A DNA stretch of 64,000 nucleotides from Eledone cirrhosa (Eukaryota): positions 87,544,001 through 87,608,000 of the forward strand of contig OZ024747.1 in the NCBI GenBank assembly GCA_964016885.1. Reading direction: 5' to 3'. Shown here piece after piece: positions 1,205 to 54,700 of this stretch (its first letter is position 1; each line of letters starts with the position of its first letter). Under the pieces are notes generated by a model. That model was not told where the DNA came from and searched no databases. It worked only from the letters and a program-made list of their open reading frames with translations. The position numbers and the translations under genes were made by a program.

Positions 1205-1845
1205 AAGTGACAATAAGAATTGCAACTTTTTGTAAACTTTATTACATATTACAATTTGGTTCCATATCGATTAGCTTGGGTTTGATCATGCACCGGATCC
1301 CAACTCTTAATTGATACTTCTTCAGTTACAAGATTTTACAAGGATGACGGTGATGATATATATATATATATATACTACCATAGTAGCCATAAAAAGTTAG
1401 TGATTTTAGGGGAAAATATTTAATTTAATAATTCCTTTATTACAATATTCTATGAATCCTCAATTTTCCTTGATTTTCTCTCTCTTGTCCCTAATCAGAA
1501 AACACTTCACATATAGCCATAAGTACCATAAGATTTTCATTTTACGTAATATTAAGATTAGCTACTCTTGTTTAGATACCATTGCTTCAAATATCACACA
1601 TTATGAAAGAAAAAAGCATTAGATATTTCATTGAAGAAACTTCCCTGCTGGTTCAGAATGACAATTGTTTTTATTGTTCTTAGCATGTCTCTTGTTGCAA
1701 ATGTTCATTATTGTTGTTGTTAAATTTATATTTGCTAATGTTGTCAAAGTTATTGTTGTTATTTTCTGTTATAATTTTTGTTTTTAAAATACTAAAATAT
1801 TGGAAAAGTACATTATAAAATAAACCCTGTAATTTCCTTCTTCAG

Positions 1846-2045
1846 AAAACAAGACCTGTGATCTTCAGTGTAAGAATGGATGTTGGGGTCCTGGTCCTGA
1901 ACGTTGCTTAGAATGTGCAAACTATCATATTGATAAAGCAACTCGTTGTATCGCCTCTTGCTCTAGTGTACCATTACATTATGATGCAGGGAATAAGCTG
2001 TGTAAGAAATGTCATCCACAATGTGCCAACAATTGTACTGGACCT
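1846..2045 (+). CDS. EGFR: EGFR exon, start of Cys-rich domain IV
   Basis: ttcag| [23 protein letters not shown]...[12 protein letters not shown] |gtaag. Confidence 0.93.
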
Positions 2046-2739
2046 GTAAGTATATTTCTACTGTATGGTTTTCATACACATACACACATACATATGTTCA
2101 TCATATTCTTTTAACCAGACACACTAGCAAAATATGAGTAGTTGTTAGTGTTGTTGTTTAGTTTTGACTATTTTTCTCTTTTAAATTAACATTTACAGCA
2201 CTCTTTTTTATTGGGCTTTTCAAAGAGTGACTGAATGCTTGTTTGAAAATCTGTCATATTATCTTCTTTTTCATTATTTTGTGCCATTGATATCACTATT
2301 GTGATGTATAGCTCTTCTTTCTACCATCAATATAGCCATTTTGAAATGTGAACAAATTTGCAAGTGGCCATGTGGCAGAAATATACTAAGTTGAAGAAAA
2401 ATGTCAAGACACATCTTCCTTCATTCAGTAGAATGTTTTCAGAAATTATATAATTGAAAAGCTCTCTTGTCAATACTCCAGAATGAAAACATGAATAAAA
2501 CAAATTTCTTACATTAAGTTATCAACAAGAATCACCTTCTAAGTGGGAGCTCTATAAACCTGTACATTCACAGCAAACAACAGCAATAATCATTTATATT
2601 TTAATAACTATACAGCCTTTTTGTCCATGCATCACACACAAACACTACAATCTGTTGAAAATTTTCTAAAATGTTCTCTACCAATGGTATTATGTATATA
2701 TTTCCACCTCTCTATCTTTCTATGTGTGTGTATACACAC

Positions 2740-2773
<34 letters not shown>

Positions 2774-5700
2774 GTAAAAGTCATTGAGTTTGTGGAAAGG
2801 TCTGAATGTGTGTGTGTGTGAAGGTCAAGGTTGATATCTAAGTAATTTACACTAGTCAGATTGGTGGTTACAGTAATCTTAAGTCCTATCTCGTTAAACA
2901 TGGCTATCAGCGTTTTCCTTAATCGGTCAAGGTCATGATCGCTTTTATGGCCCAATAGGGTCAGACCATTGTCGCAGTATAAACCTGTGTGGAAGTCAGG
3001 GAATTTAACTTGCATTGTATCTAATATATATAACCCAACCAAATTGCATACATCAGCACTATCGAATGATCCCATTGAGATATCGAATAGTTCTGATGTA
3101 GTTGACTTTTTTACCGAGGCTACTCCATTATGGAAAAAGAGGTGTATGTAGTGGTGAACTCCAAAGCTTTATCCAACAGAGTCACCGAGATCGGAGGTAA
3201 AACTGAATGTATTTAGCTTTGTTGGCGTTGAAGGAGTTACACCACTTAACAAAATGGCTTATATCCATGCCATTAACCTATGAGTAGTTTTGCTATGATC
3301 CCCCACTCACTTATTTCACCTCATGAACACAACTCACAATCACTCATCTCCTCTCAAGCATCTCCCCAATCCCCTCACCCCTGGTATATTCTTCAGTGTG
3401 CCCACATTAAAAATGGCAGCCCTGGATGTGTTATCTGACAGTGGTTGTTATTAAGCTGTCTTTTGTCAGCAGCTTTCTGTCTGCATATATATATATTTTT
3501 TAATATATAACTTCATTACGGTTTGGTGAAGAAACCAAATATTATTTATTCTGTCTATGAAACTATGAGCTTTGTACTAGTTATAATGATTTCTAATTTA
3601 GGCACAACACCAGCAATTTGGGGGTGAGGATAGTTAAATTGATCCAAGTTTATTTTTTTCAACCCCAGAATGGTGAAAGGTAAAGTTGACCTCAGCAGAA
3701 CAATATTGATAATTATATAAATAGCTCAAAATGATGGATTTATATTATTTTTATGTGCATTATTTTTTCTTCCTACTTTCTTATCATATCGCACTAATAT
3801 TCTTATGGTAATATTTTTTACTATTTATTTCAGGTAGAACATGAATGCGACAGTTGTTTACACGTGCAGCATGGTCCTAACTGTATGAACAAATGTCCAC
3901 GTAACATGTTTCCAAACGAGAAAAAGATCTGCCAAGTGTGTCATGTCAACTGTGATTCTGGGTACAGATGCCTTTCTTTTTGATATTTGTTAATTGTCCT
4001 GTAGTTCTCACAAAATAATTTCTGGTTAACAATCCAACCCATGCTAGCATAGAAAATGGATGTTAAATGATGATGATGATGATAATTGTTGAATGTCACG
4101 TTTGCCATTCAAAAACTAGTAAATTCACTTTAACCAGTAGATTTACTTTAACCAGTGATCAGGTCACAATCAGTATAACATAAAGTTTGACATCAAGAAA
4201 TAAATGATACTTTACATAATATTTATGCTTTTTACTAATATTCCAATGAAAGACACTGCTTATGAAGCTGATTCTTACATAAAATTCTGATAAAGGTTTT
4301 TAGAAAAATAAATATAAACACTTTTAAATAATTTTATATCATAAAACTATGGGTGGGTTTAGTATTAAAAGGTTTTAAATGTTTTAATATAATTATTCTT
4401 TTTCTCCTTTCAAGATGCACCGGTCCAGGTTCTGAACTGAAAATTGGCAGCTGTAATAGCTGCAAAATAGGACTTCAGCAAAATGATGGCAGAGTTTCAT
4501 GTTTTTCAAAGGAAATTTCTGAATGTCCTGATGGCTTTCATCGTACTTACAAAAGAAAAATGAAACAAATGAATGGGAAAATTGTAAGTAGTATATTTAA
4601 CACTTTCAAGACTTCTATTAAAGTGTTAAAATTATTCGTTCAAATATTTGACTAAAATGTCATTATTACATGAAAGATTTCAATATCTACATATCAAATT
4701 AGTTATTTTACTAAACCTCTCGTAATTTTTGATTATTTTGAAACATTTTTTGTAACCACAAAAGGTTTATATTTAAATACTATGTTAGTAATTATTTTAC
4801 TTATAGTTACTTACTTTGTGGGAATGGTATTTAATTTGTTTCAAACTTATCTAACTTATACTTATAATCTTTATTTGATTACAAAATACCTGCCAGTTGA
4901 GAAAACAATTGTTTTAACAAGAAATGTTATATAGGACAGGCAATGTCAAACTGAGGGTCCTCCGAGGGCCACATGGGTCACATATGTGTTGTCTGAGGGC
5001 CACATGGGTCACATATGTGTTGTCTGAGGTCCACATGGGTCACATATGTGTTGTCTGAGGTCCACATGGGTCACATATGTGTTGTCTGAGGTCCACATGG
5101 GTCACATATGTGTTGTCCGAGGGCCACATGGGTCACATATGTGTTGTCTGAGGGCCACATGGGTCACATATGTGTTGTCTGAGGGCCACATGGGTCACAT
5201 ATGTGTTGTCTGAGGGCCACACACAACAACTAATTGCGGACATTACAACACATTTTAAAAATTTTATATTATGAAAATAAAACATGCTCGCGCTGTAAAA
5301 ACCTTTGTGTGGGCCGCAGGTGTGCTTGTAAAGGGCTGCATGTTTGACATGCCTGATATAGGATGTTGCATGCAAGAAAAGACATGAAATCATAAAATCA
5401 ACAAGAATTCTATAATAATATAACTGTTCTGATGTTTAAAAATAGAAATATTTGAACATTTTAGCTGTTATTTTACTAAATCTCTCCAAAGCCTTGATTA
5501 TTTTCAAAATTATTTTAAAATTATAGTCTGTGTCATTCATTAGAAATATGGTAACAAAGGGGTTTATCATTTCTCAGAAGTTTTTATCCATAATATGTAT
5601 CAAGAGCTCAATTCCCTTATAGTATTATATCTTTGATACAAAAGTTATGTTTTTTTATTTTATTATTAGTATATGATCACTAACAAGGTTATTTGTCAAG

Positions 5701-8045
5701 GCATATTAGAAATTACTTTTATCAAGAAAAAATATATTTTGAATATCTGAGATAATTAATAAAAAATTAACATGTAATAGAAATATTATTTTTAAATTTC
5801 TACCTTAGGAATTCTCATGATCTATTAAATATAAAAACTTCTAAAACTTACTTATTTTCAGTTATGTATACCTTGTCATAAGGAATGTGAAACCTGCCTT
5901 GGTGAAGGGAATTATTCCTGCAAAAAATGTCGCAACTTCCTGATGCATAAAAAGTGCACAGACATATGTCCCAAAAACTTTTATAGTGATATAGAGAAGA
6001 AAGAATGTGTTGAATGCCACAACGAATGTTTAAATGGATGTCATGGCCCATCATCATCTGACTGTGCTGCTTGCCGTAACCTAAAAATTTATTTAAGCAA
6101 CGAAACTATGGTAATTTTTTATATATATATATATAGAACACTTAATAGTATTGCTAACATGGTCAACTTTTACCTCTTCACATTGTGATTAAATGAAAAA
6201 TTTGAAAAATTTTGTGATATGGTTTGTTTATTTCATTCAAGTGCTAAGTTATTATTTCTAATATCATAGCAGTAAGTTATTGGTAACATGTGTTCATGGC
6301 TTTGTCTTCATAATTAGAAGTACTTCACTTCAATTACACCAATAAATCTACTATACTATATATCCATTGGTTGGTGTTAGGAAGGTCATCCAGCTGTATA
6401 AAAAACCTGCCAGAGACGCTTCTGTGAGAGCGAGACAAGGTCTCCCGACCATTCCCGCATCAAATGAAACAAAACCATCTAACCCATGCTAGCGTGGAAG
6501 ATTGACGTTAAACGATGATGATGATGATTAGCAGTGGTAAGAAACTCCCAGGAGAACTAGACAGCAGAAGGTCTTCAGAGAAGAAACACCCCTCAAGCAA
6601 GTGTTTCGGCCCTTAACGTCCCCAAGGAACTTTTAGTTTTCCCTGTATTATATTGTATGTCTTAACTTTATATTACTGTTTTAAAATACAGATTGCTGTT
6701 TAATGTTTTACACTAGGAAAGTTATTCAGTTATAAAATCACTTGATCCCAAAATGAAAATAAAAAGTAGCATTAATCCTATTATATATCAATATTTTTAA
6801 ATATATTTTTCTTACCAAATAAAACTATTATAAAAGATATTAATAAAATATTTTATCTTCTATTGAATGTAGTTTAACTGCACAGCTATATGTCCACTAT
6901 CTAAACCATATTCTATACGTGATGAAGAACAGAGAGGTCGTACTGTCTGTGTTGATGATACACACCCAGTGATAGTTGCCGAAAAACAGTAAGTCGGTAT
7001 TTCATCATCTATTATTAAATAATTGTTTCTACTTTTTGGCAATTACCCAGTACATTACTGGTACTTTATTTTATCGACCTCGTAAGGATGAAAGGCAAAG
7101 TTAACCTCGGCGGGATTTGAACTCAGAATGGCAAGGGCCGTAACTCTATGCGTCAAAGCATGGCGTCCGACCCTCTACCGATACTGCCAATCCACCATCT
7201 ATTATTAAATAATGTTTGTGTGTATGCTTGTTAGTTATTGAAGTTTTATAGATGCCCCAAAAGAAAAAAACACATCTGATCATTTAGATGCTAAATTCTG
7301 AATAATGAGGTGGTCACAGCTTCTAAATAAGACTAATATCCATAGTGAGGATTATTCTTATTGGCCAGTTTGGATCAAATGGTGGAAGCAATATCTCAGT
7401 GACTAGCAACTGATGCTGAACATGAGGCACCTCTCCCTTGCTTTCATTAGAAATTCCAGTGAAATTTAAAATTTCTGTTTATGGAGTAGTATTAACAATT
7501 AATGGTTTAAACTAGTAAACAGGGAGCCCTGTTGGTGGCAGCAAAATTAGAATTCAGTTTTCTTGTTAATGCATTGTGCAGTTTCTTGCAGTTTGACTCT
7601 CCTAGTGTGAGAGAGGAAGGTCATTGGCAAAACATCTGTACTACACATATTTAGACCTTTGGAATGTATGTCACAAAACTTTCCTGCTCTATGCACCAAC
7701 TAGCATTGTTGCTGATTTGCTGAAGGATCTCAAGACAGTTCAGTTTGAAATATAATCTAAACACTTACACTTAAAAAACAATCTGAACTCTGATGAAACT
7801 GTTACACAGGCATTTGAAGAACCTGTGTTCCAAAAAATACAGTGATGGCTATGAAATTCTTTTAGTTTGTGTTAGATATGATAGAGCTGGGAATATTTCT
7901 TAATGTATTTGCTGGATTCTTTACTTATTTGTCATATGAAAGTTATGATCAGTCAAAAACGTTCTAAAATTTAAATGGAACACAAGACAAAAAAAGAAGT
8001 GGAGGGGACAAATATTTTTTTATGTATTCTCTATTAACAGTGTTG

Positions 8046-8105
<60 letters not shown>

Positions 8106-11100
8106 ATATATATATATATATACCATTTATATTGTGTTGTTTACCAATGGGTAGCACTGGTGATTCCAGTTAGTAAATAATGATGCAATAAATTAAAGCA
8201 CTCAACATTATGCAATTCAACCATCTTAGATATATATAATATGGCTGGTGCAGGAACAGAGTTAGATATTTATTAAAAACAACAGAAGGCCAGACTGGAA
8301 ACTTGCTTTAAAAATTTAATTCTGTGAAAACACTATGCATATTTCAATGCCTAGTTTCATCATCCAATCATGATGCAAGACTTAAGTGATTTCATCAGGT
8401 GTTGATTGCAGAATTAGTTATAAGTATAACAGGATTACAGTGAACACAAACAGAGAATAGAGAATAGATTTGATTTGGGGATGGCTTGCTAATTCAATGT
8501 TATTGTAATGACAAATTATCCCTGAATCTTTTTAATGAATATGTATATACATATATCCACCAACATAGCTTTAAAGTTTCATGTAGAAACCTTGAATATT
8601 ACAAAGAATAAAACAATGATGTACTAGTCCTTAATAATGAAACTTCTGCTTCTAAATAGAGACTGAGACCATGAGTGGCATTCAACAGTACAATCATTTT
8701 AACACATACTAATTTGAATAATTGAAACTATAGCCATATCAAATATTTGGCTTCACTTTATCAGTATATGTGTAGTATTAAAATGTCCCTTTTTTTTATC
8801 TAAAGGAAAAAGGAAAAGAAAGCCAATATCATCATCATCAGTGCCGTCTGTGGTTCAGTATTGCTTGTTTTATGTATTGTTATCACAATCTGCTTCTTCT
8901 GCAAACGAAATCGAGAAATAGAGAATGTAACTAAATACAATGCTACAATAATGGGTTATGATGAAAATGAGGTAAATATTTTGATGTTTCACTTGACTGT
9001 AGTGAATTTAAAATTTAGTATTTACCAGCTACTGTTGTGCCAAATTCTAATTCATTGTTGTGGTTTGTGTTGTGCTGTTGATAAAGCAAAATATAACCCT
9101 AGCAGTGATTGGCTAACTTTGATTGCTAGAATAATGAGAATTCCACAATTATGTATTACTTGATAGTATTGTCCTTCATGTCATGTACATTTTCTTGAAT
9201 TTGTACATCATTGCTATGAACCTGTAGTCTATTGCTTTCCTCCCTACAATGGGCTTTTATCATGTTCTTAGATAGATAATGATAGAAATAAATCTCTTGT
9301 AGTTCTGGTATACTATTTTGATACATATCTGGTTAGATTGGTCTATCTTGTCATCAGCGAAACTTTATTCTACCTGGAGTTTTATAAATTACTTGTTACC
9401 ATAATAAATTAATTTTAATTAAATTAATTTATTTGTTACTCTATTAATTCATTACTAAAACAGATTATTTTTTACCATAATACATATATAAAATTAGATA
9501 GTTATATCTCTTAGATAATTGACTCCCTGTCTAAATTGTTATATCTTTTATGCATAATTGGTTCCTTGTTTAATTTTGTTTCTCAAACATTTCAGCCGCT
9601 CAATCCAACTGATATAAAACCTGATTTAGCTCAACTTCGATTAATTAAAGAGTCCGAACTTAGAAAAGGTAGTATAATTGGATCTGGAGCTTTTGGAACT
9701 GTTTATAAGGTGAGTTATAAGAAATTAATTACATGTTAAATAATTTTTTTTACTCATTCCCTAGTTAGTTGGAATAATTAAGGTTTCAAAACAGAATAAT
9801 TAAGGTTTCTTTCAAAACAGAGCAATATATGTACTTTTCTTTTCCAGAACAAATACTGTGATACACTTAATTTGATGACTTGGTTATTCAATTTGATGTT
9901 ACAGAAAATAAAATACTCAATATTGTTTCATTTTCTTTTGAAATTTTGTGCTATTTTGTCTCTTTTTTTCTTAAAGGGATTTTGGATTCCTGATGGCGAA
10001 AATGTAAAGATTCCTGTTGCAATCAAAGTGCTTCAAGAAGGAACATCTCCTAGCCAGAATAAGGAACTGTTAGAAGAAGCTAGAGTCATGTGTTCAGTTG
10101 ACCAACAATGCTGTATCAGGATTTTAGCTGTGTGTATGACTGCTCAGATGATGTTGATTACACCTCTCATGCCACTTGGATGTCTGCTGGATTATATCCG
10201 TAAAAACAGGAAAGCAATTGGTTCTAAAGTACTACTCAATTGGTGTACACAAATTGCTAAGGTAAGATTTTATGTTTCAATGTGATTTATTTAGTAAATA
10301 GTACATTGCTTGAGGCACCTAAAATTATTTTATTATTAAATTCTGATGGATTGGCAGTATCGGTAGAGGGTCAGACGCCATGCTTTCCAGCATAGTTACG
10401 TCCCTTTACGATCTGAGTTCAAATCCCGCCGAGGTTGACTTTGCCTTTCATCCTTACGGGGTCGATAAAATAAAGTACCAGTAATGCACTGGGTAATTGC
10501 TGGCCTTGTGCCTAAAGTAGAAACAATTATTAAATTCTGGTATACGATGAAATGCTTACCAATTATGCTTCAATAACTGTAAGTACTAAATATACAATAT
10601 TTAGTACTTTCAGTTATTGAGCTCAATAATTTGCAACATATTTAATTAATGCAATGCATAAGAACTAAAATTTATCAAAATATTCAAATTGGTTACTATT
10701 CTGAAGGTACATAGCCTAGTAGTTAGGGTGTTGAGCTCATTATCTACCATCAGGTAATAGGTTCAATCTCTGAACTGGGGGCACATTGTGTCTTTGAGCA
10801 AGGGACTTCATTTCATGTTGCAATCAACTCAGTTGAAAAGAATTAGTACCAGCAGCAGTGTTGTACTTTCTGTTGCCTCATGGAAGTGGTAAATTCAAGC
10901 CTGATGAAGGCATTTGTTCATTTAAACAGATATCATGTTATATGTTGGATAGCCAAGAAATAATTATAATTTATGCTTTCTATGTTTAAAGTTATATAAA
11001 TAATAATAATGAAAATGAACTGTTTGTTTCAGGGTATGGCTTATTTAGAGGCCAGAGCCATTGTCCACAGAGATTTAGCAGCAAGAAATGTTTTATGTAA

Positions 11101-11199
11101 GTATTGTCACCAGTTTGGAATTCTAAAATATTGTTTAACTGATATTATCAACCATGATATGCAGTGTTTTGTGTGCGTGTGAGAGAGAGAGAGAAAGAA

Positions 11200-11236
<37 letters not shown>

Positions 11237-14200
11237 AGCCTTCACCACTATAAACAATCCATTTGTGTGGGTAGATCCTCATACATTGATATATACAACA
11301 GGAGAGTCTATCATATATATAAATATACATGCAGTTTTTCAATATCGAATTTTGCATATTTAGATGTCTAACTGGACAAAATACAATTGTTTACCTCCAG
11401 TCATATTGTATGGCTTTCATATGTGTATGTGTGTTTGTGTATTTTAAGGAACTTCACATTTCACCTTTTGCAGCTTATTATTTATATATAAAGTAATTTG
11501 AAGTTATATAAAATATTTTCAATATGTTACTTCTTCTTTCTTGTGTTTCAGTGCAAACTCCTAACCAAGTAAGAATCACAGATTTTGGTTTAGCCAAGTT
11601 ACTTGACTATAATGAGGAAGAATATATTGCTGGTGGTGGTAAAGTGAGTCTAAACTATTGATTTATTGATCTGTCTAATTACTGTGTTGTATACAAAATT
11701 TACCCTTGTTTCATAGACTAACTATGTACATATACTAATAGTGTGCATATATATGTGTGTATGCATATGTATGGGTGAGTATAAATATGTATATATGAAT
11801 ACATGCATATGTGTATATGTCTGCATAGAGGTTCATATGGTATATGTGTGTTTAATGTCCATCTCTCATTTATTTATTTCTCTCAACAAATAATGCAACA
11901 TATAGATAGCTTCTTCTATTCAGGTGACCTAATTAGCAGTGGAGACGGGTGCGCCAAGAATATAATAGCTTGAATAAGAATAGGATGGAAGAAGTTTAGA
12001 GAACTGCTCCTACTGCTGACAACAAAAGGTTTCTCCCTACATACAAAAGGAAGGCTGTATGATGCCTGTGTGCAGTGTGTGATGCTGCATGGTAGTGAAA
12101 CATGGGCTGTGACTGTAGAGGATATGTGTAGACTGAAGAGAAATGAAACAACCGTGTTTCATTGGATGTGCAATGTAAATGTGAGAGAAAGACATGAGCT
12201 TGGGCGAGCTGAGCGAGAAGCTGGGTTTAAGGGGAATTTGAGATGGTGTGCAGGAGAGAAGACTGCATTGGTATGGACAATGATTGATGAGTGAAGAAAT
12301 GCCAGGAAATCCCAGTGGAAGGAAGTCACAGTAGAGGATGACCAAGAAAAACCAGGGCAGAAATTGTGAGAGCGGACTTCAAATCACTAAGACTGGCTGA
12401 GAAGATGACAAGGGAATGCAACAAATGGAGAGATGCCATGCTGAGAAGGGCCTGTCCAACCCATGTAAGCATGGAAAAGCAGACGTGATGATGATGATAG
12501 ATAAATACAACACTCTAAACTTCATATGTAATTAGTAGGTAACAACAATAACAACACGTTTTATTCTCTGAAATGTTGCATATAATCAGAAGGAATGGCT
12601 CTAATAATGTTCTTTCTTTTCCAGATGCCAATTAAATGGTTAGCTCTTGAGTGCATCCAGCACAGGATATTTACTCATAAAAGTGATGTGTGGAGTTATG
12701 GTAAGTTTGATAAATATGTGTGATCATTTCTGATGTATGTGTGTGGATATCTGTATGGCACACACATAATTTAGTATTGTATGGTGAGATGTCAATCTCT
12801 TCAAAATAGTTTCAAGAGGGGTTAATCCTTAACCCCTTTTGTTACCACATTTTTATTGAAAGACACTACCTATAATTTTCAAATTATTTTGAAAATAATC
12901 AAGAATTTAAAGGGATTTAGTAATATATCTAATCTAACTTTCTCATTTTAAGCACACGCTTGGAACATGACAAAGATTATTACCTCAAATTATGATGAAA
13001 GGTTTTTAAGTAAATATAAACACTTTAAAATAAGCAGTATATTATTTCATTAGACATATGGTTACAAAAGGCTCAATATACAGAACTACTATGTACCTTC
13101 TAAACGGCTGAAGCTATTAAAATAAATTAAATAAAATTCTGATATATGTGGGCAGACATCTGTTGTCTTAAGCTTTGAAAAGGGTCAGCTTTGGAGAAAC
13201 CTGTTTTAAGGACATTATATGAGGGCGGTGGATTGGCAGTAGCGGTAGAGGGTCGGACGCCATGCTTTGACGCATAGAGTTACGGCCCTTGCCATTCTGA
13301 GTTCAAATCCCGCCATGATTAACTTTGCCTTTCATCCTTACGGGGTCGATAAAATAAAGTACCAGTAATACATTGGGATAATTGCTGGCCTTGTGCCAAT
13401 GTAGAAACAATTATATGAGGTCATTGCTGGAGAAGTAAGCAGGAAATTATACACAAGCTACAGTAGAGGAAGACCTGCTCAAACTTTCATTGATCAACTC
13501 TCAGACAATACAAACCTCAGTAAGGAACAGTTTACAGGAGCAATGGAAAATCATGACTTGTGGAGAGACTTTGTCAGGAATATTCGACTGTGGTCGCAAT
13601 GTTGATATGTTATGATGATTTTTAATTGTTTTGTTTTTTTTCTTTTCATTCAGGTGTCACTGTTTGGGAGCTGTTTACTTATGGCCAACGGCCCTATGAA
13701 AATGTCCGAGCAGCACATGTCCCAGACTTGCTAGAAAAAGGAGAACGTCTACCACAACCAAACATGTGTACAATCGATGTCTATATGATAATGATTAAAT
13801 GTAAATGAGGTCCTGTTTTATTTCTTTTCTATATTAAACTGAAGTTACCTTCTGAAGCATTTCACAGAATCCTGCTCATTAGCCATTTACTATGTCCTGC
13901 ATATAATTATTTGCTTACTCACATTTTACTTTATCACTTAGTTGGGAGGGAGGGCAGCCAGCACAGGTAGCTTTAATTGTTTCAAGGCCTCTGTGCTTGG
14001 TGGGAGAGTGGAAGGTATCTTCAAACCAGAAAGTTAGCATGAAGCAGCAGAGTAGAGTCCTCTAGTAAATATCAAATACTAAATTCTTTTCCCATTGTAT
14101 TTTTTCAGGCTGGATGCTGGATGCTGATAGCAGACCATCGTTTAAAGAATTAGAGGTTGAGTTTGGTAAAATGTCACGAGATCCTGGACGTTATTTGGTC

Positions 14201-17200
14201 ATTGAAGTAAGTCACTTTGTCATGTTATACCAGACATAATCTAATGTTAATTATGAATGTAAACGTGTAGATGGTGTTGATAATATGAAAAGTGTGTATC
14301 TCTTTTAATGGTTTCAGTCATTAGACAACAGTAATGCTGATGCACCACCTTTAAAGAATTTAGTCGATCTTAGAACTTTTTTTAAGTTGTGTACTTATTT
14401 TACTGATCCTTTTTATATAACCCGTGAATGTCTTCATGTGTTTCTATTTTTTAAAGGCAATATTTGGTCATAATTTTTTTTTAATATTTACTTCTGCATC
14501 CATGGATTGATATTTCTCAGTTTCAGAAGATCCTGCTTTAGGGTGAAAGCAGAAACTGTTTGCTTAAAATTTTAATCTGTACTAATAATAAATATTTGCT
14601 CTATGGGTTTATATATACTTATATGTATATACCTCTTACTGAGTCCTCTCCTGATTTTCATCCATCATTGTATTTATTATTACTACTATATATATATATA
14701 AACGTTTGTATATGTATAATAAAGCCAAAACAACGCAGGTATGGACATAGAATAAAGAATGCAAATGCAAAAGATATTGTTGACAATTTGTCTTTTACCT
14801 TAGATTTATTTAAATGTCCTAAATTTTCGAGATAATATCTCTTCTTCAGAGGGAATAAAGTTGTCAAACAATATCTTTTGCATTTGCATTCTTTATTCTA
14901 TGTCCATACCTGCATTGTTTTGGCTTTATTATACATATACAAACGTTTATACCTCATTACACAATGCTTCAAGTGAACTATAACCTCCTCCTATATATAT
15001 ATATATAAATCTCACAAATCACAACACTATATTTTTTTTGTCACATCACCAGTCTGAAGAGCAAGTCAATAATGGAGTCAGATCCGTAACTCCTATGGGT
15101 GACCAATTCTCTGTGAAATGCACATAAGAGGTCGATACACAATAAAAAATCTAATACATGTAAACAAAACTGCTTGTGCATAGAGTGCTTGTTTTGGTAC
15201 CACCACCAGTAATTCACTGAATCACCTACACCATATATATAGTAGTGAAAGAGTGAAGAATAACATGGTTGGCTGTACAAAAAGGGTTTTATTTACAGTA
15301 TTAACAATTGTTTCATTGATCAGGTGAGTCTAAAGGCCGCTAATCACTCGAAGTTGCACCACTCGACCTTAAATACAGTGTGTCTCTGATGATTTGATCA
15401 GAGACACACTGTATTTAAGGTCGAGTGATTAGCTGCCTTTAGACTCACCTGATCAATGAAACAATTGTTAATACTGTAAATAAAACCCTTTTTGTACAGC
15501 CGACCATGTTATTCTTCACTCTTTCACTACTATATATAATATATATATATACCATTAGATGATGAAACTGATGACATATATATAGGATGGGTACAGTTTC
15601 TATCTATCAAAATTCACTCACATTAGTCAAACTCATGGCTATTGCTCAAGATACTCTGCAGTGAGAGTGAACTTGAAATCATAGTTGTGAAACCAACTCC
15701 TTAACGACAAAACCATGCCTACGCCTATATTAATTAGTAAAAGATATAAAAATTCTTTTTTTTTTATCCATTCAGAAATAAAAATTTAAAATAATCCTTA
15801 ACTTTCAAGTATATGAGGAGGGGTTGGAAACTTAAAGCTTAAGATAACAGTGTCATCATAGCATTGGGTGGTCTATTAAGTTGTATGTTATTGTTGTAAA
15901 GGATACACCGGCTTTTCATTTCAATTCAAAGATATTAACAGCTTTAGCTGGTCCCCAATCTGATGCTAGAATGTCACGAGATCTTTCACTATAATTAATT
16001 TTTATTTATATATTCATGAATTTATTTATTTATTCTATGAAAAATGTATGATATTTGTGTTATATTCACACCAAACTTCCTCCATAATAATTAAAATAAC
16101 TGTAAATTTAAAAGATATTATCTCCAAAGGAGGTATTTAATATTGTTGCTCTTGGTGTTTATTATTATTAATGTTATGTGTTAAGTTGGGAGTATCAGTA
16201 GGGTATCGGACAACATGCTTTGTGGCATAGAGTTACGGCTCTTTACGTTCTGGGTTCAAATCCTGCTGGGGTTAACTTTGCCTTTTATCCCTACAGTGTT
16301 GATAAATAAAGTACCAGTAATGCACTGAGGTTGATTTAATCGACTTACTCCCAAAATTGTTGTCCGTGTACCTAAATTTGAACCCATCATTATTGTTACT
16401 GGTACTTTATTCTATTGACCCCCGTAATGATGAAAGGCAAAGTGGGATTTGAACTCAGAACATAAGGGTTGCTTAGAGTTACAGCCTTTTACGTTCTGTG
16501 TTCAAATCCCTAAGAGGTTAGCTTTGCCTTTCATCCTTACAGGGTCAATAAATAAAGTAGCAGTAATGTACTGAGGTCCATTTAATTGACTTTCTTCTCT
16601 CCAAAAATTGCTGGCCTTGTGCCTAAATCAGAAACCATTATTATTATTGTTGTTATTGTTGTTGTATGATATTAGTTTTACATAGTGTTACTATGGTAAC
16701 AAGAAGCAGCAACATGGCCAGTTTCTTTTGTTTAAATGAGATTATCTTTGATGAGAATCAATAAGAATGAATAGCTATGATAATAACATAATTAAATCAA
16801 TATGAAGCATTGTTTCAATGATTCTTCATATTGACTTAATTATTTATCTGTTAATAGAATAAAAGAAATTTCGGAAGAATTCCCAAAAGATACTTTGTAA
16901 TATTAGACAAATGAATAAAGAAATTATTCAGTAGAGACATTTCAAAAGATATAAATGACATATGTTTGTTGTTGTTGTTACAGTTACAGTTCATACCTAC
17001 GTAGTTTTCTCAGTTGTTTTAATGCTAGGAACCCCAAATTCATCATAAAAAGATCCCCCCATAAAACCGGATGCCTGTCTGTTGCAGGAGTTAACCCCCA
17101 ACTGTTGTTACTGTTATTTCTTTTCAACTGAATGGACTGGAGCAACATGAAATGAAATGTGCTCCAGAACACAACATATTGCCCTGGCCAGGAATCAATC

Positions 17201-22839: not shown

Positions 22840-23008
22840 ATAGGAACGAGTAGGACGCCAACGGCTGAGCTCAAGCCGTTTCGACGGCTAATTCTGGACT
22901 GAATTAGCCGTCGGGGTCCTACTCGTTCCTATTACCCACTCTACTACCCTAAGTATTGAGTACTTTGGTGCGTTATGGTCCACCTGGTTCCTTACCACAT
23001 TTCTTCCG

Positions 23009-23010
<2 letters not shown>
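22840..23010. repeat. Three-way-junction (Y-shaped) fold-back element between (TA)n tracts
   Basis: Outer stem ATAGGAACGAGTAGGAC/GTCCTACTCGTTCCTAT; inner hairpins AACGGCT/AGCCGTT and CGACGGCTAATTC/GAATTAGCCGTCG. Confidence 0.9.
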
Positions 23011-23068
<58 letters not shown>

Positions 23069-23266: not shown

Positions 23267-23369
23267 TCTTGTGGCACATAATCAAAATATAAATCCACAA
23301 TAAATAGAAACTATTAAAGTAGCAGTTGATCTCTTTTATATGCAAAATCTGTCTGCCAACTGAACAATA

Positions 23370-23620
23370 TATATTTATATTCATACATGGAACAAAAGCA
23401 CTACCTAAGTTTTCAAGGCCCTATTTCGCCCATATCACCAGATTGTAACCTAGTCTTTAGGTGCTTGAATGAGTTTGAAGATACCATTAATGGTATCTTC
23501 AAATTTGCACCTGAAGACTAGGTCACAAATTTAATCCCTCTTACAATCTGGGTAGATGGTCAAATCAGGACCTTGAAACCTTAGGTAATACGTTTGTTCT
23601 GTATATGAACATAAATAAAT
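23370..23620. repeat. Diverged palindrome made of two inverted hammerhead-bearing arms
   Basis: Central perfect palindrome tttgaagataccattaatggtatcttcaaa 23474-23503; + arm GCAC CTGAAGA...GAAA CCTTAGG TA; - arm AGCAC CTAAAGA...GAAA ACTTAGG TA GTGCT. Confidence 0.8.
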
Positions 23621-23939
23621 AATATATCAGCTTGCATACCTGATTAAACACTGCTTTTCTTTTTCACATCCACCGATATTTTACTACATATACATACATA
23701 TATATATATACACTCTTTCAATATGATACTAAAATACATTTCATCCACCTACTAATACCTGTTTACTGAAGGCCATACCACACCCACCAATATCCATATA
23801 TGGAATCCTCTTCAAGTAAAACTTTTTCACTGTTATAGTCCTGTCCTTTACATTTATTAAACATTTTGCCAAATCAATGTCACATTTTTTTGTCTTAAAT
23901 ACACAAACAAACTGATAATTAGTTGTATGGGAAAACCAC

Positions 23940-33605: not shown

Positions 33606-34103
33606 TTAAGTGTTTTAGATAATTAGCATGCAGCTTGTACCACATGCATACTACACACAGATAAATTAAGGCTGAGAATTCAAACACTCCGGACTTACCA
33701 CCCTTGTTTCTGAAATGAAACTCTCTTCTGTTTAAAACCAAATATAGTCGGCTAAAGGAGCTTCCTTTTTCGTATTTTTGTCTTAGTGTTTGATGAGAGG
33801 CGTAGTTTAGAATAACCTCCTCCACTATACAGTAGTGGCCATAACTGAACTCCAAAACTAATGGTCGCGAATACATGAAACTTTATTTACAATAAATAAG
33901 CTCTCTTGCAATAGATTGAGCATTGTTTTCCTTAACAATTTATCTACAGATATCCTACATATACATGTATATATAGATATACTTTTCTGTATCAAGTTGA
34001 CGTGGGAGCCATTATGCAGTCATTCAATATGTTAGATATAGCAGTCAAATCAACACTGGAGGCTGCTTTCTAGAAATTGCAACCCAATCTCTTTCAAATA
34101 AAA

Positions 34104-40500: not shown

Positions 40501-43500
40501 ATTCAAAGAGTCGAAAAAAGGAAGTATTCTTGAGAACACATTCAGTGCGTGGTTTCTCCAAAGCAAAACTCAATTCTGTGAAGCTTACATTTGCTGTGAT
40601 AGTCACTTATGTAATATGTTGGACACCATTTTTTCTTTTTCATATCTGGTGGTTGTTTGATGAAACAGTAATAGGACGTAAGAAACCTTTTTTATCTTCC
40701 ATTTATTTTGACTTGTCTTAGTCTTCTATTTTAATTTCATTTACATATTGGGTTATTTCTAAGGAAATAAATCAATCTTAGTACTTGACTAGTACTTTAT
40801 TATATTGACTCTCAAAAAATTAACCCTTTAGAATTTAAACTGGCCCTATCCGGCCATAATTCTCTTACCTGTTTCTGTTCAAACCAGCCGTAACTGGCCA
40901 CTCATACTTATGATAAGGTATTGTTCTCAAAATAAATAACATCAAAATCTCATAGATTCGATATTATGTAAGGTAAAGCCATTACTGTCAAAAAACAATT
41001 GTAAATATAGAGTAATGTAAAGGCTCAATAAAGAAGTTTGCCTCCTTTCTTCAGAATAATGGCTACCTCTTCACAATGCTGGTTATCATCTCTTCCTGAG
41101 TACAACATTGATTCTCCTGTGCTGGTTTTTAACCTTCCTAATCTTGTCTGTCTGCTTTCATTTATATTAAGAATATCTAAGTCATAGCATCTCATATCTG
41201 ATGTAACCTGAACTAGTTTCTCTTGTGTCATACATTGTTCTTACATTCCAGAATCCTAATTTGGTCTTGATCTTGGTTTTGGTGTCCAGAATTCCCATCT
41301 TCCTGTCAGTGGCTTCTTGACGGCTTTCATCACTGTCATTCATATCTTGGGATGTCTCCGGAAGCCCGTCACATTCAGTAGTGTCAGTTGAAACTTCTGT
41401 TGCTGTTTCCATAACAAAAGATTTTTTATGGGATAGAGTTGTTAGCCCTATGCCCAACCCGGAGAACCAGAGTCCATCGTAGTCTGGCTTCTACCCTTTG
41501 ACCTGTCCGACATGGTTGGAACTGCGACTTAGCTCTCAGGATCACAAAAATACACAAGCCTCCATACATCGACAAGGGGATAAATGATGTGAGGGGGAAT
41601 GTTATAACCAGAGACGTTTTTCAACAGTTACTGGACTTGGAAAAATAGACTAGAGCTGTAGCTTTTAATAAATTGTGATATTTGCAATTAAATTGAACAA
41701 AATAATTTGATTCTCAGCAATTGCTTCTTTAATTGATAATAGTTTCTAATTTAGGCTCAAGGCCACCTTTGGTGGCAGGGGAAAGTCAATTTAATCAACT
41801 CAATGCTTGATCAGTACTTTATTTTATTGATTCAGGAAGGACGAAAGGGAAAAAAATTGACTTTGGTGGGATTTGAACTCAGAATGTAAAGAGCTGGAAC
41901 AAATGTCACAACCTACCATCCTTTCACAAATTTATAACAACCACCAGAAATAATATTTATCCAATTCTTTCAATGTTAATTTTGCTTTCTTCATTCTATA
42001 AGCATATTTCTTTAATCTTTAGATGAAGGTGTGGTAATAGTTCTACTACTGGCATTTCTAAATAGCTGCACCAATCCATGGATTTACCTGATCTTCAATA
42101 GAAATTATCTTTACAATTTCTTTTCTTGCAAAAAATTATGCCACAACAAAAATGAAGCTGCTGCTAATAACACAGAGATGGAACAGTTATCTCTGACCAA
42201 TTCCAATAGTTCAAGAAGACCCTCTGGCAACACTGTCAGGGACAATAACTCTCCATTGCATCGGACATCAGATCAATTTACTTATACAAATAAAACAACG
42301 TATGTATATTTTTTAATCATTAGAACAGATTTTATTTTTGGCTGTATAGTCAGGGGAAGAAACACAGAGAATTTAGCTACTATTTCTAACCAATAAAATT
42401 ACATTAGTGAGGGATCCTCATTGGTTTAGTCAATATTGATTAGAAAGGGTGTTAGCCATGCCATTTATCAAGGAGCCTGGTCATAATGACCTCTCCAATG
42501 TCACTGCCATGATAAAAGGTATCCAATACACCCTGTGAGTGGTAATGTGGCAAATTAATATTAATTGTAATGATTTTAAACTTTGGCAGAAGAACACAAA
42601 TTCTGCAATAGAGATTTAGTTGATTTAATCCTTTTTGATACCAAACTACCTGAAACCACCCCTGATTGCATGATACAAAACTGTTTATATTTATCTAAAA
42701 GCTTCCATCATAATTTTATCTAAAAAGAGAATGTTAGGCTATATTCTAAACACAAGCTTAATAATTAAAAAATTACAAGCAATGTTTTTCATTAGAAATT
42801 GGTAATGAAAGGGTTAATTCCCCCTACTAGCTGACTGTTACTTATTTTATCAAGCTTGGAATACAAGTGTCAAAGTCTACAATGGCAGAATTGAATCTAA
42901 ATGATGAAAAATAGGATAAATACTGAGGAATATAATTTAACGCCTATTATTTCTGCAACTCCGCTCTTATAATAATTGTTTCTACTTTTGGCACAAGGCC
43001 AGCAATTACTCAGTGCATTACTGGTACTTTATTTTATCGACCTCGTAAGGATGAAAGGCAAAGTTAACCTCGGCAGGATTTGAACTCAGAATGAAAAGGG
43101 CCGTAACTCTATGCATCAAAGCATGGCGTCCGACCCTCAATAATAATGATTAATTGCAGGTCTACAAAGTATGAGGGAGGGTATAAACAATACTTTTTTT
43201 TATCAATCCTAAGGCCAATTTAACATGGATGATTTTAAATTCAGAATGTAAAGGGACGTAACTAAATATAGCATGGTATTTTGTCTGTCACCTTACCAAA
43301 TCTGCCATTTACCACACTAATAATATTAATGCAGCAAGCATTTTAAGGCTATTTTCCTCTGCTAAAGTATGGATTAGCTTTGAGAGCGGCATGAAAGATG
43401 TTACGCTCATTATATGGTGCTTTTCAAAGGAATGATTTATGGCTGGTTACTTTTCTGGGCCCATTAGTCACCTCTTACAACATGCAGAGATATAGCATAC

Positions 43501-44042: not shown

Positions 44043-45871
44043 TGATGAAATATTTGCAGTTATTGAAAATATGAAGAAACTTTATCAAAACTATACCAAA
44101 TTAATTATTTATTCCCCTAACAGTTTTATTTTCCTCCAACAACAATCTTTACTATTTACTTACTGATATTTTTCATGTCTATTTCATATGTTAACTATCT
44201 CTATCTCTCACAGCAGTCTAATGGCTGAAACCAGTAAAACAAAAGAATAAAATAATCTTAACCGAACGCTTCCTTTTCACAATACGTCGCTCTCTTTTTC
44301 CTTTGTTGCTTAATTTTTTTTCTTCTTTACCTTTTTTTTTTTGTTTCCTTATTGCCATGTATATTGTATCGTTAAAGTAATCATTTCACTACATGTACAT
44401 AATATTCATAACACTTCTAGAAATATTTCAGCCAGTAGTTTACTGGACATCTACCGAAGGAATTCGCAGAATGTATCCTATTTATATACGTAGTGGTAGT
44501 ACTGTGAAATTAGTCTTAAAAGTGTAGAAATCGTACAATGTAGATGAAATCACTTGAATAAAAATTCGATTTAAGTCACAGGGAAGTAAATCTTGAAATA
44601 TATACAGAATAAGTCTTGCATGGATTCTTTCCCTTTGTCGTTACTCTTAAATGGTTTTAAAGTTTCCACGCAACAATCAAGTCTCTGGTCATTCGACCAG
44701 CTAAAAATATCATTAAACAAAATAAATATAACCAGACTTAAAAAATATATATATTTGCCTTAATCCCATTTACAACGGAATAAAATTCGTAAATACCTGG
44801 ATTTATCTAGTAATTATTTTGTCCAACCTGTGGCGTTCGAGACATTTGGTTGAGTTGAGCCGCTGACAACGAAGTTCTTGTCATCAATGGCGGCTCGCCT
44901 TACTGAGGTGTCATGTAACGCACGTGAGGGTGCTTGGTTGTTTTACTGTCTTAGCCTCGCCATCACCCGTGGTAAAGCTGCGAGTGTATTGGCTTGCCTC
45001 AAAGTGTTTAGTTGACAGTTATGATGTGATGTGCGGTCGATTGGTGCACTTAGTGGTGAATCGATACATCTTATTTGTTCCAACCCTATCTAATCTAAAC
45101 CTTACCTATTCCTGATTTTACCTTATCGTCTCCCATCCCATAGTAATACCCTCTTTTCTTTAGATCCACTTTTTATGTATCTCCTTTAAAGTAGAACCTA
45201 GACTCTTTATTTCACAATCCTATCTGTAGTTAATGACCATTTTTCTTTTCACTTTTAATACATCTTATATTATATATTAATATCTGCATATACCTTCAAA
45301 CCTATATATTCCCTGTTTAATTTAATTCTCTTTAATTATTTGCAAATATTTTTAATGCACTCTAATTCCCATCAATATTAATTATTTTCTTTAGAATTAG
45401 TTCTGTTTCGACAGTCATCTAGTAATAATTGTTTTTACTTTTGGCACAAGGCCAGCAATTAGCTCAGTGTATTACTAGTACTTTATTTTATCGACCCCGT
45501 AAGGATGAAAGGCAAAGTTGACCTCGGCGGTATTTGAACTCATCTAGTAATAATAAGATATATATATATTTTCATTATCATAAGATCAATTATTTCTGAT
45601 GTATATTTTGTCCTTAACATCTTAGTTTATTATTAATTTATTTTAAAAGTATACTCAAGTTTTGCTACATCTAACTACTTATTTATCTCCCTTGATCCCT
45701 AATTATCTCCCTTGGAAAATCACTTGTATACTCATTTTTTAATCAAAACATGGACATTCTGACGGTTTCTAACTCAAAATTTTTTACTATCCAAGTACAG
45801 CCTTTACTGTATGTTCTTCACTTCGGTGATACGATTTGATTTTTGAATCAATATGTTATAATCCTTTCTTT

Positions 45872-45988
45872 TGGCTCTGATGAGCGCACTAAATCACCTA
45901 TTTATTTTCACTGTATGGATTTTTGATCGGTATTCATAATATCAACGTACATATTAATGGTTTAGTGTTTGAAACAAATTGTCAGCCA
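45872..45988 (+). ncRNA. Type I hammerhead ribozyme (Penelope/retrozyme-type) with extended stem II
   Basis: Stem I TGGCT/AGCCA; CTGATGA 45877-45883; stem II GCGCACTAAATCA...TGGTTTAGTGTTT; GAAA 45971-45974; quasi-palindromic stem III ACAAATTGT; GTC cleavage triplet ending at 45983. Confidence 0.75.
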
Positions 45989-46578
45989 TTAAAAATGTAT
46001 GTATTCATAAATCATTGTTTATCTCTCCAGCATTTTATATATGCTATATATATCAAAAAGAATTAACAGAGTCAGAAGCTTAGGTTAGTCCTTGTAATTC
46101 ATGAGCTCAAAGGTAAAAGAATCCTGGGCTCTTCAAATATAATATAGAGAGAAAAACACACTAGAGAGAGAGAGTGTTTATCAAGTTACAGGGAATACCA
46201 CTGGCGTATGGAACCTAATGACAGGTTCACTGTACACTATATTTATGCATAAAGTATGAAAACACTATCAAAGTCATATATGAAGGAGGGTGGAGAAGAA
46301 AAAATATCACCTAGCATTTATACAAAGTACCTTGTACAATATTTATGTTTAAAACCAATCAATTTTATTAAAAAATCTTTTGTAATGAAAAACCTTTTCT
46401 AAATCCTAATATTATAAGAATAATTTTTCGAAATCCTTGTCAAATAATTCCACCTATCCACTGACCTCAGACTGGTACTTTATTTATCAACCCTGAAAGG
46501 ATGAAAGACAAGGTTGATCATAGTAGGGATGAATGTAGAAATCCAGAACCAAGACAGATGCTCAGCCAATTCATTTAA

Positions 46579-47392: not shown

Positions 47393-47516
47393 TCATAATC
47401 CAAAATGGTAACGTAGAGGTGGTCCAGGAATGTCATCATCATCTCCATCTGACTCCAGAGACACAATTAGATCAACATACTTTTGCTGTGGTAATGGTTT
47501 CAGTAGTTTTATCAAG
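47393..47516 (-). CDS. UBA6: UBA6 terminal coding exon
   Basis: [40 protein letters not shown]. Confidence 0.93.
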
Positions 47517-51380: not shown

Positions 51381-51411
<31 letters not shown>

Positions 51412-51681
51412 AAAGGAAATCAGAAACGATAAAAATAACAAAACAAATGGCACAGTACATGGAAGAAATACATTAGTTTAACGCTTGAAATAGCAGGAAG
51501 ATAGTCTTAACATTTTGGACACTAGTCATTCATCAGAAGATAGAGTTAGAAATAGAAGATAAATAGAAAGTAAAGAGTGATGAGAGGAAGTAACAGGGAA
51601 AATGAAAAAAAAATTGTGGAAAAAAGAAACATACATGCATATAACAGTCAGCTATTTTAGAAACTGGTTTGTGTGTGTGTG

Positions 51682-51713
<32 letters not shown>

Positions 51714-54700
51714 TATACTTTGAGAGGGTCATGCTGCCAATAAAAACACTTCAATTTATTATCATAATTTCCTAGTCGGTTAGTTTAATAACCAGATGGT
51801 TGATTAGTTGTTGATTGTCATCAAAGCTCTTCCATCACACATTCTGTGGCCTCCTCAGTGACTACTATTGTTACTTTTTGTCGCTCCTTTGTTCTGTTGT
51901 ACGCCATTTTGTTTTGTGAGCTTTACACTTGGGTGCGCATGCAAGATGGTGTAGGACAGAACAAAGGCAATATACAAAATAACAACAAAAGTAGTCACTG
52001 AGGATGTCACAGAATGTGTGACAAAAGAGCTTTTATGACATCAACAACTAAATCATTTTGAAAATAATCAAGAACTTGGAGAGATTTAGTAATCTAACTT
52101 TCTCAATAATTTGGCTGATGGTTGGGACATAACTTAACAAAGGTTCCTGTTTAAAATTATGATGAAAGATATTGAAATAAATTTAGACATTTTGTAATTT
52201 GGGCAGTTTGGTATCAAAAGGGTTAAACTGCAAATTTTACATGAAGTTTAACTTACAAATTATTTGGGTCATAAATTCATTTGCTAAATGTTGTTCATCA
52301 GAAGTTTGCTGCATCTCATCAACATCCTCCTTCTTCACTGTTTCATCAGTTTCAATTTGCTTTGAAAGAAAAAAAAAAATAAATAGCAATTTCTGGTAAG
52401 AGTGTGTGGTTGGAGAGAAGTGGTAGAGAGAAAGAAAATGAGAACAAGAGGGTGAGTGTTGCATGGCAGGAAGGAAAATCAGTGCTGCGAAAACTGAGAT
52501 ACTCGTCCTTTCAAGGAAGCCTGTACAGTGCACTCTACATGTGAACGGAGTTCCACTGAAGCAGATGAGAGGTTCAAATATCTCAGGGCCGTGCTCATAA
52601 GTGATGGAAGGCAGAAGGCAGGATTAAGTGCAAGAATTGCAGGAGCTGGTGCAGTAATACACCAGCTTCAGCATTCGATAATCAGAAAAAGGGAGGTAGG
52701 TGGAAAAGCTAAACTTGCTATCTTCAATTTGGTATTTGTGTCAACCATTACCTAGGGTCATGAATCTTGGGTAATGAATGAAAGAATACAATTGCAAATA
52801 AAAGCGGTCGAAATGGGTTCCTGCTAAGTGTCTTTGGAGTAACATTACTCCATAGAGTGTAGCTTGGAGATCACAGAGTCACTCCAGGTAGAGCTGCTAC
52901 ATCTCCCATCTCCAAATTGAGACATCACAGCTCCGATACTATGGGTAGGTGGTTAGAATGTCACAGGAAAGAATTGTTGGACAGATTTTATGAGCAAAAG
53001 CAACTGGCAAGTAGAACCCGAATAAGCTGGTGGCATAACATCCATAAGCTTGGCTCACTTCAGAAAGAAGCTTCCTCACGAGGTGGAGAGAATATTTTGC
53101 TGATTTCATAAACCCGATCACAATACCTTTTGATGTACATGGAGGCTGAGGTCACAAGAGCAATTAAAGAGCTCAAACGTGACAAGGCCATTAGCAAGGA
53201 TGAAATTCAACCCAAGATGTTAAAGGAGTATGTGATCGATGGTCAGCATCTTGTTGCCTGACTGATGTCTCTATATGAACGCTTGAATATTCATATTTGG
53301 ATAAATGGTGCTAAATCGAAACCATTCAATGTGGGAATTGGACTCCACTAAGGGTGCATACTGTCACCTCTCTTGTTCATTATTTTCATGAACATGATTG
53401 TCATGCACAGTTGAGTTGGAAGAAGTATCGTGACGGTGTAGGATCAGTCGGCTGGAATTTGCAGACAACAACATGGTATTATTTAACTTGCCAGACAGTG
53501 ATCTCCGATATGCATGTGATAGGTTTTAAAGGGAGGAGATAAGTTTGATGTTATTGTTGGACAATATACTTATTGATATAAATAAATGAGATGGAAAGCA
53601 GAATCAAAGTGAATAATAGACTTACTTTATGTGACACTCTAAATTCTGGAATTTCAACATTTTCAAGCTGTTCCATTATAGATTCTGTAGTTAGATCCTG
53701 GAAAAGAAATAATCATTGTGTTGAATCAGTGCCTTATGAGATCTTATTGAGGACCAGACTAATACCTAAATCAGCCCTTATAAGATTTGTTACTCAGGAA
53801 CAGGGAATCATGAGTCCTGATATTAACCTTTTAGCATTCACATTCTCTATATTTATGATTGTATTTTCACAGAAATGGCTTTATCTCACATAATATCAAA
53901 TCTATGAGATTTTGGGAACAATACGTTAACGTCAGTATGAGTATCCAGTTACGACCGGTTTGAACAAAAAGAAGTGAGAGAATTCTGGCTGGATATGACT
54001 GGTTTATATGCTAAAGGGTTAATAGGAGGAAGGATTGAGGCAAAGTTGTTAGTCTGAGGCTTGGGTGAAGTGTTTAGTGTTGGAAATTGGCATGGGAATA
54101 TAATATAGGTGGAGTAGAGACAAGTGCTTGGGTGGTTGTGGCACAGATACCACTATACTACTAGTGGAAAAGGGCAGAGAGAGGTGACAATATATCTGTG
54201 GACCAGACATTGGAGTGTGTTGCTGAATAACTTCATGCCATTATGGAAGGATACTGTTAAGACGTGTATGTATAGCAACAGTACACCCAAGAGGTAGGCA
54301 CAGTACTCTATAGTGGCTATCACTAGAGCTTCATGAAGGGTTAGTATTTTTTTTTTTTTTTTTTCAAGCCTAAAAGATTTTCTGGCCATGAAGTAGCTTA
54401 ATCTTTGTGATAGTATGGAAAATGGACATTAAATGAGGATGATATATATATATATTATTCATTATATTTCTTTACATTTTGAGTTCAAGTCTTGTCACAG
54501 ATAACTTTTCATTTCATATCTCTGATACTATCTACCAGTTGTAATTCTAGACCAAGTGTCACTGCTTTTCAGGTGATAGGAAGCAGGATTTTAACTCAGA
54601 ACACATGAAGCTGGAACAGATACCAGAAAACATCCCAACCAACTCTTTAATAATCCTGCCAATCCACCCATGGACTGGTACTTTGTTTATTAACCCCAGC

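Follow-up and report, generated by a model that had tools for sequence, protein, structure and literature searches.

In a 64,000-nucleotide stretch of the Eledone cirrhosa genome (assembly GCA_964016885.1, contig OZ024747.1, positions 87,544,001 to 87,608,000; hereafter the window), nine sites resembling type I hammerhead ribozymes are real but mostly broken end-pieces of the pseudo-long terminal repeats (pLTRs) of Penelope-like elements (PLEs). We consider it probable, at roughly 80%, that these loci are 5'-truncated pLTRs of nine unrelated PLE families, and that with every insertion the palindrome was put together from two cDNAs whose priming was separate. A first-pass annotation, made from the sequence alone, had described the sites as one recurring family of non-autonomous snap-back RNAs mobilised by PLEs. 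It was right that the sites derive from Penelope-like elements, that the hammerheads are of the minimal type I kind and that inverted pLTRs occur, and the type I architecture does recur across the nine loci. However, the loci do not form a single family, and the snap-back RNAs found no support in the analyses below. As judged by published descriptions rather than repeat libraries, the loci are largely the plain PLE LTR fragments that the annotation had named as the case against itself.

Genome-wide searches assigned every one of the nine loci to a repeat family; first-look candidates numbered 107 to 4272 per family, of which the best 40 were scored in each search. The family majority sequences contain stem I, the first catalytic box, stem II, the second box, a palindromic stem III and the cut-site triplet, and several have stem II domains of 60-90 nt. 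The stems are wholly different between families, and a BLAST comparison of ten family references gave no matching pair at E<=0.01, which shows that we are dealing with nine unrelated families and not with one. In the five families that were aligned, 408 of 436, 268 of 288, 168 of 210, 126 of 143 and 125 of 134 stem cells were paired. Changes on both sides of a stem were few (6, 0, 6, 2 and 0), as expected for copies decaying from a master. The window features are as follows, "tail" denoting extra element sequence beyond the pLTR end.

1205..1346, minus strand: single pLTR arm of Family A, adjoining (TA)n; first box at 1325, second box broken (A15.1 changed).
2824..3114, minus strand: broken reverse transcriptase (RT) fragment of a Hydra-type PLE (tblastn, 44% identity, E 3.6e-19 to the open reading frame (ORF) of genomic locus L249).
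14697..14992, both strands: Family B palindrome with (TA)n on either side.
14697-14869, minus strand: tail-less arm of this palindrome, with an intact hammerhead at 14849.
14861-14992, plus strand: its tailed arm, without a ribozyme.
15008..15171, plus strand: single arm of Family C; core nucleotides intact at 15054, stems decayed.
15234..15538, both strands: Family D palindrome of two tail-less arms; the first box at 15386 is a junction chimera and the 5' strand of stem I is lost.
22843..23009, both strands: Family N (Hydra-type) palindrome, neither arm with a first box.
Up to 22907, minus strand: its tail-less arm, starting at the pile-up site described below.
22907-23009, plus strand: its tailed arm, with a deletion between short direct repeats.
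23368..23684, both strands: Family F palindrome; tail-less arm (minus) with G5 changed, tailed arm (plus) with the core at 23511 kept and stem I decayed.
45541..46045, plus strand: single arm of Family G that takes in about 330 nt from the upstream part of the element; its hammerhead, at 45877, has a long stem II and an intact core.
51409..51660, minus strand: single arm of Family H; minimal hammerhead at 51536 with G10.1 and G12 changed.
51731..52052, both strands: Family I palindrome, second box altered in both arms (51858 minus, 51998 plus).

The box changes in both Family I copies (51858 and 51998) and in the minus copy near 23450 were read by eye. As the first-pass annotation had stated, inverted repeats are present at five of the nine loci, and (TA)n or TA-rich runs adjoin most of them; because (TA)n lies on both flanks, a target-site duplication is indistinguishable. 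The RT relic that it had reported is real as well, although it is joined to none of the nine loci and has no Pfam match. The Family A arm (1205-1345) has a 100% identical copy about 410 kb away on the same contig (87133427), which suggests a segmental duplication or an assembly duplicate.

Families B and N consist of pLTRs of coding elements, contrary to the non-autonomous units that had been proposed. Family B is 99-100% identical to repeats that flank ORFs of about 3 kb in inverted or direct arrangement, and the 14697..14992 palindrome is 100% identical over 110 nt to the pLTRs of full-length elements encoding RT and GIY-YIG domains. These parent ORFs match RVT_1 (E 3.6e-15) and GIY-YIG (E 4.3e-6); their DKG and CCHH-type motifs and the lack of an upstream zinc finger fit the Penelope/Poseidon group as defined in the parts of PMC8557442 covered here. 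The ORFs that are flanked by Family N pLTRs have a catalytic RT motif, and their endonuclease is CxCX5C-linked (CxCX5C in L250); homologues of about 700 aa carry RWK/RWR, DKT and CxCX5C motifs (DKT and CxCX5C in P0002 and P0013); the RWR start in L249 was seen by eye. Judged by these motifs, the Family N parent shows the features that section 11 of PMC8557442 gives for the Hydra clade and would belong to it; the RT relic is of this type too, by its similarity to L249. Co-oriented endonuclease or RT fragments also lie upstream in some copies of five further families. A Hydra-type endonuclease is found about 700 nt upstream in one Family A copy (L158, contiguity partly shown) and upstream in two Family D copies (L389 and L052). 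An endonuclease lies 428 nt upstream in Family F (L171) and upstream in three Family G copies (L090, L073 and L085), and one of Penelope/Poseidon type about 200 nt upstream in Family I (L291 and L453).

The palindromes are built to one plan, with two arms joined at their truncated 5' ends and the outer ends lying in (TA)n. One of the arms ends where the pLTR does, while the other carries a tail, which in tandem copies (L122, L249 and L039) is the start of the element body. A tailed arm was paired with a tail-less one in 99 of 102 Family N pairs, 19 of 20 Family B pairs and 17 of 19 Family D pairs, that is, in 135 of 141 pairs of the three families together. Unselected Family N pairs gave the same picture: 33 of 36 combined a tailed with a tail-less arm, one was a tail-less pair and two had an intermediate end (p 2e-9 against independent choice). 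The junctions, in contrast, were distinct in 35 of these 36 pairs, which indicates that the palindrome units are made anew rather than copied whole. The gaps at the junctions mostly range from -10 to +20, with short overlaps and palindromic centres. Such overlaps and centres could also arise by self-priming, in which one cDNA or antisense-templated strand folds back and copies itself, as has been proposed for rotifer Penelope elements (PMC3846280), and the observation by eye that subfamily variants are usually common to both arms points the same way. However, in 9 of the 19 listed B pairs and 10 of the 17 listed D pairs the tail-less arm extends further upstream than the tailed arm. Each arm then holds sequence that the other lacks, upstream sequence in the one and the tail in the other, which excludes a simple fold-back in these pairs. 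The window palindrome at 14697 is a case of this kind, and we regard self-priming as a very improbable source of the palindromes.

The 5' ends of the arms are not randomly placed in all families. Among 128 unselected Family N arms, 68 begin between -5 and +6 relative to a single loop II site, 28 start upstream and 32 stop short of it; a second method placed 95 of 131 arms at the site and 36 upstream, with none scored downstream. Of the 30 pattern-selected Family D arms, 15 begin between -2 and +4 at the 5' strand of stem I (7 upstream, 8 downstream). A box begins 29-32 nt upstream of the pile-up in both families (by eye); we take this box to be TATA-like and the pile-up site to be Initiator-like. 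About 35 of 40 Family H matches begin within some 10 nt before one motif (by eye), which is presumably YY1-like. The pile-up sites are thus likely to be the RNA starts of a pLTR promoter. A splice-site explanation of the Family N pile-up was ruled out, as the bases before the putative acceptor are kept in most arms.

A smaller group of Family N arms starts at the predicted ribozyme cut site. Genome-wide, 309 tailed arms begin exactly at this position, compared to 58 that begin 4 nt upstream of it and 70 that begin 4 nt downstream, the search patterns for the three positions differing slightly. In the A-only subset, which is immune to CpG decay, the numbers were about 111 at the cut and 22 and about 38 beside it (by eye). 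A BLAST sample placed 1 of 128 arms at the cut site and so gave no peak there, but BLAST misses short tail-less arms, and the genome-wide counts show a small excess. The peak argues, weakly to moderately, for ribozyme cleavage in vivo. Most arms nevertheless read past the predicted cut site, which implies that the templates were mostly uncut.

These observations can be accommodated in one scheme. The GIY-YIG endonuclease would cut both strands of a (TA)n target, and each cut end would prime reverse transcription with the element RNA as template. Each of the two internal start sites that delimit the tail would serve one of these ends. The cDNAs would often run off the 5' end of the RNA after 60-250 nt and would then be joined end to end. 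In Families N and D this 5' end would lie where the pLTR promoter starts transcription, or, for a few percent of the Family N arms, at the ribozyme cut site. The hammerhead would be a passenger of the pLTR, the usual template being uncut. Use of each internal start once per insertion would give the structure that we observe. In line with this, Poseidon protein in vitro cuts and extends both target strands, two internal RT starts delimit the tail, and uncut RNA is the main template, as described in the parts of PMC11167929 considered here; Penelope of D. virilis is described in PMC2377424 as having an internal promoter with an Initiator.

Several observations weigh against this scheme or parts of it. 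The window's D copy and one other D pair are tail-less on both arms. No coding parent was found for Family C among its copies, and for Family H there was one weak distant match (L462). The Family N parent ORFs and five homologues gave no Pfam match, and these ORFs barely align to the B ORF, so that their assignment rests on motifs. About 10 of the 25 best matches to the 22840 copy (22843..23009) have one common junction, as a subfamily copied as a unit would likewise give. Family B has no pile-up, its arm starts being spread from -190 to +40, and a cap-derived G before the Family N pile-up site is not in excess (8 of 51). Finally, the excess at the cut site could come from joining at a G-run, and in part from CpG decay plus a point change.

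Two alternatives draw on these points. The first is that some loci are non-autonomous, retrozyme-like mini-elements, the hairpin or circular RNAs of which are re-inserted whole by PLE enzymes. The lack of a firm coding parent for Families C and H would agree with this, as would the junction and deletion that the roughly 10 best matches have in common with the 22840 copy; moreover, metazoan retrozymes exist and have been proposed to derive from PLEs (PMC7229834; bioRxiv 10.64898/2026.07.22.740005). However, those matches were picked for likeness out of at least 17,960 near-exact Family N arms, and the common junction, which recurs in at least 6 of 100 unselected arms (by eye), sits at a microhomology, while nearly all unselected junctions are distinct. 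The first catalytic box is absent from the 22840 unit, and none of the nine loci is overlapped by a tandem retrozyme array. Of 46 family loci that were seen in arbitrary DNA, only 6 are two-stranded, so that palindromes are a minority form. Mini-elements therefore appear unlikely. The second alternative concerns the pile-up, which might mark a stall of the reverse transcriptase or a joining hotspot instead of an RNA start. The missing cap-G signal and the behaviour of Family B suit this possibility, as does the location of the Family N site after a pyrimidine run and a weak hairpin. Yet the structural place of the pile-up differs between the two families (loop II in N, the 5' strand of stem I in D) and its distance of about 30 nt from the TATA-like box does not; besides, the pile-up is one-sided and is also seen in unpaired arms adjoining host DNA. 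We find a stall or hotspot doubtful, though it retains an appreciable minority chance, and we continue to favour two separately primed cDNAs per insertion, ending in Families N and D at an RNA start.

The view that the window holds intact ribozymes could not be upheld. An Rfam scan of the window returned 53 matches at E<=10, none of them a hammerhead, and a strict type I descriptor gave 0 matches. A relaxed descriptor, which allowed an extra base before stem II, a long stem II and a short palindromic stem III, gave 3 matches. In 30 block shuffles the mean was 0.1, and no shuffle yielded as many as 3. Only 2 of the 11 motifs named in the first-pass annotation pass this descriptor, namely 14849 (minus) and 45877 (plus). 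The others are broken, chimeric or truncated and lack the full core with stems I and II expected of an active ribozyme. Minimum-energy folding did not recover hammerhead folds for the window copies (z -0.9 to +1.0). The 22840 hairpin did fold with a z of -11.9, which reflects the pairing of its two arms, and the stems I and II that had been assigned to it are this same pairing. Its reported missing core is a truncation, and long copies carry the real first box at a position further upstream. A search for a canonical first box no more than 34 nt from the second box of Family N gave 148 matches, which were rejected because the sequence upstream of them is unrelated; the real box is a U3-A8 variant further upstream. 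In the first 100 of 5,262 matches, we counted by eye 75 first boxes with U3-A8, 23 with C3.A8, 2 with U3.G8 and none with C3-G8. The C3.A8 core mismatch marks a young Family N subfamily (e.g. L249-L251) that includes long inverted copies, and an intact core may not be needed for its spread. The third match to the relaxed descriptor, 24242 (minus) within 24150-24250, is type I hammerhead-like and has no relative among the fetched loci; it may be due to chance or belong to another family. At 8330-8400 (minus) we observed a degenerate hammerhead-like motif with a palindromic stem III, and its 73-75% match in L063 suggests membership of another old family.

The window is not especially rich in hammerheads, although a high density had been proposed. 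The sample for comparison (600 kb) was drawn from 18 large contigs as 60 stretches, each 10 kb long and placed at round coordinates. In this arbitrary DNA the relaxed descriptor found 40 motifs, compared to 0, 1 and 0 in shuffles, which corresponds to 67 per Mb (bootstrap 37-103). The window, with 3 per 64 kb or 47 per Mb, is not enriched relative to this sample. For the 3.0-Gb assembly we estimate about 2x10^5 hammerheads (1.1-3.1x10^5), a figure obtained with a permissive descriptor and clustered matches. The sample also contained at least 10 further intact-looking hammerhead families (L287-L344), several with a stem I of 7-10 bp. The family that Rfam Hammerhead_1 detects in the genome (at least 18 matches) is a tenth pLTR family (L001, L016/L017), which also forms two-ribozyme palindromes beside (TA)n; this family is absent from the window. 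As far as the cited sources were covered, about 9,000 minimal hammerheads are reported for Xenopus (PMC4209133), up to 120,000 for axolotl (PMC7229834) and 235 Rfam matches for giant squid (PMC6962438).

PLE hammerheads, inverted pLTRs and tails have already been published, and the loci are a known footprint. The following comparisons refer to the parts of the cited papers covered here. The hammerheads agree with those that Cervera and De la Pena (2014, PMC4209133) describe from PLE pLTRs in type I topology, the unpaired nucleotide before stem II, a large stem II, a small palindromic stem III and the U3-A8 core variant. They also agree in that one genome holds many families without relation to each other, in that most motifs stand alone and stem from truncated PLEs, and in opposite-strand pairs 100-700 bp apart. 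The numbers differ: that study counts thousands (to about 9,000), whereas here some 2x10^5 are estimated and several stem II domains reach 60-90 nt. Insertions of endonuclease-bearing (EN+) PLEs (PMC3846280; PMC8557442) share the head-to-head inverted pLTRs, the tail at one end, the heavy 5' truncation and the microsatellite targets, including (TA)n. In our loci, however, both arms are cut to 60-250 nt, the tails measure 42-140 nt compared to 30-40 there, and tail asymmetry is near-obligate. Anolis Poseidon in vitro (Frangieh et al. 2024, PMC11167929) is alike in its two internal RT starts, in the cutting and extension of both strands and in the dispensability of ribozyme cleavage for insertion. 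That work does not connect the two starts with the paired arms of a single insertion, and it detected no RNA ends at the cut site, where we find a small excess of arm starts. The Hydra clade (Craig et al. 2021, PMC8557442) shares the CxCX5C linker, the RWK-type motif, DKT in homologues, (TA)n targets and a hammerhead. Its described families are few and mostly cnidarian, whereas here the near-exact arms of a single family number at least 17,960, and its core is U3-A8 or C3.A8. Metazoan non-LTR retrozymes (PMC7229834; bioRxiv 10.64898/2026.07.22.740005) are likewise short, non-coding and PLE-related with a type I hammerhead; they are head-to-tail tandem units with one ribozyme per unit, while our loci consist of one arm or of two inverted ones, and their ribozymes are mostly broken. 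For an octopus, 31 recently active Penelope-like families are reported (PMC13282606). In the literature covered, with supplements and repeat libraries outside its scope, we found no report of a near-obligate tail asymmetry, a pile-up at the transcription start or mollusc hammerhead counts of this size.

An intron of a kinase gene probably contains the hairpins at 14697 and 15234, since exons of an EGF-receptor-like tyrosine kinase extend over 5835-18823 (plus), and editing of these hairpins is therefore possible, as the first-pass annotation had suggested. An A-to-G polarity of the window arms was not seen in comparison with family majorities or references. The window further contains a rhodopsin-family receptor with a long first exon (39708-42396, plus; 7tm_1), which probably resembles vasopressin/oxytocin-type receptors. 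Transposon ORFs are present at 26334-27143 (minus), 58104-59186 (minus) and 23974-24438 (plus), comprising a Tc1/mariner-like DDE transposase (weak DDE_3 match) and LINE-like fragments (by eye). Long imperfect inverted repeats at 31583-32379 and 32959-33737 lie outside the nine families and are possibly derivatives of DNA transposons.

As a finding on the window, decayed transposon ends are ordinary. Their value lies in the large natural data set that they open on PLE insertion, a process which the literature covered here describes as unresolved. At about even odds, the mini-palindromes, of which there would be tens of thousands, record PLE replication in vivo. A dimeric enzyme would use each start once, and the cDNAs would extend to the RNA 5' end, that is, to the pLTR transcription start or, in a minority, to the hammerhead cut site. 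The stubs would then be strong-stop-like products of a failed jump to the RNA 3' end. In the Hydra-type family the RNA would start inside the ribozyme, so that only the 3' or a read-through copy could cleave, and the U3-A8 variant would work in vivo; the roughly 2x10^5 hammerheads would exceed any count in the literature covered. The tail pairing, the concentration of arm starts some 30 nt downstream of a TATA-like box and the minor peak where the ribozyme is predicted to cut each lead to a precise prediction on RNA 5' ends and on insertion in vitro. Moreover, an estimated 10^5 hammerheads of many families, and the strong expansion of a Hydra-type family, suggest that most of the ribozymes in genomes of this kind escape counts based on Rfam.

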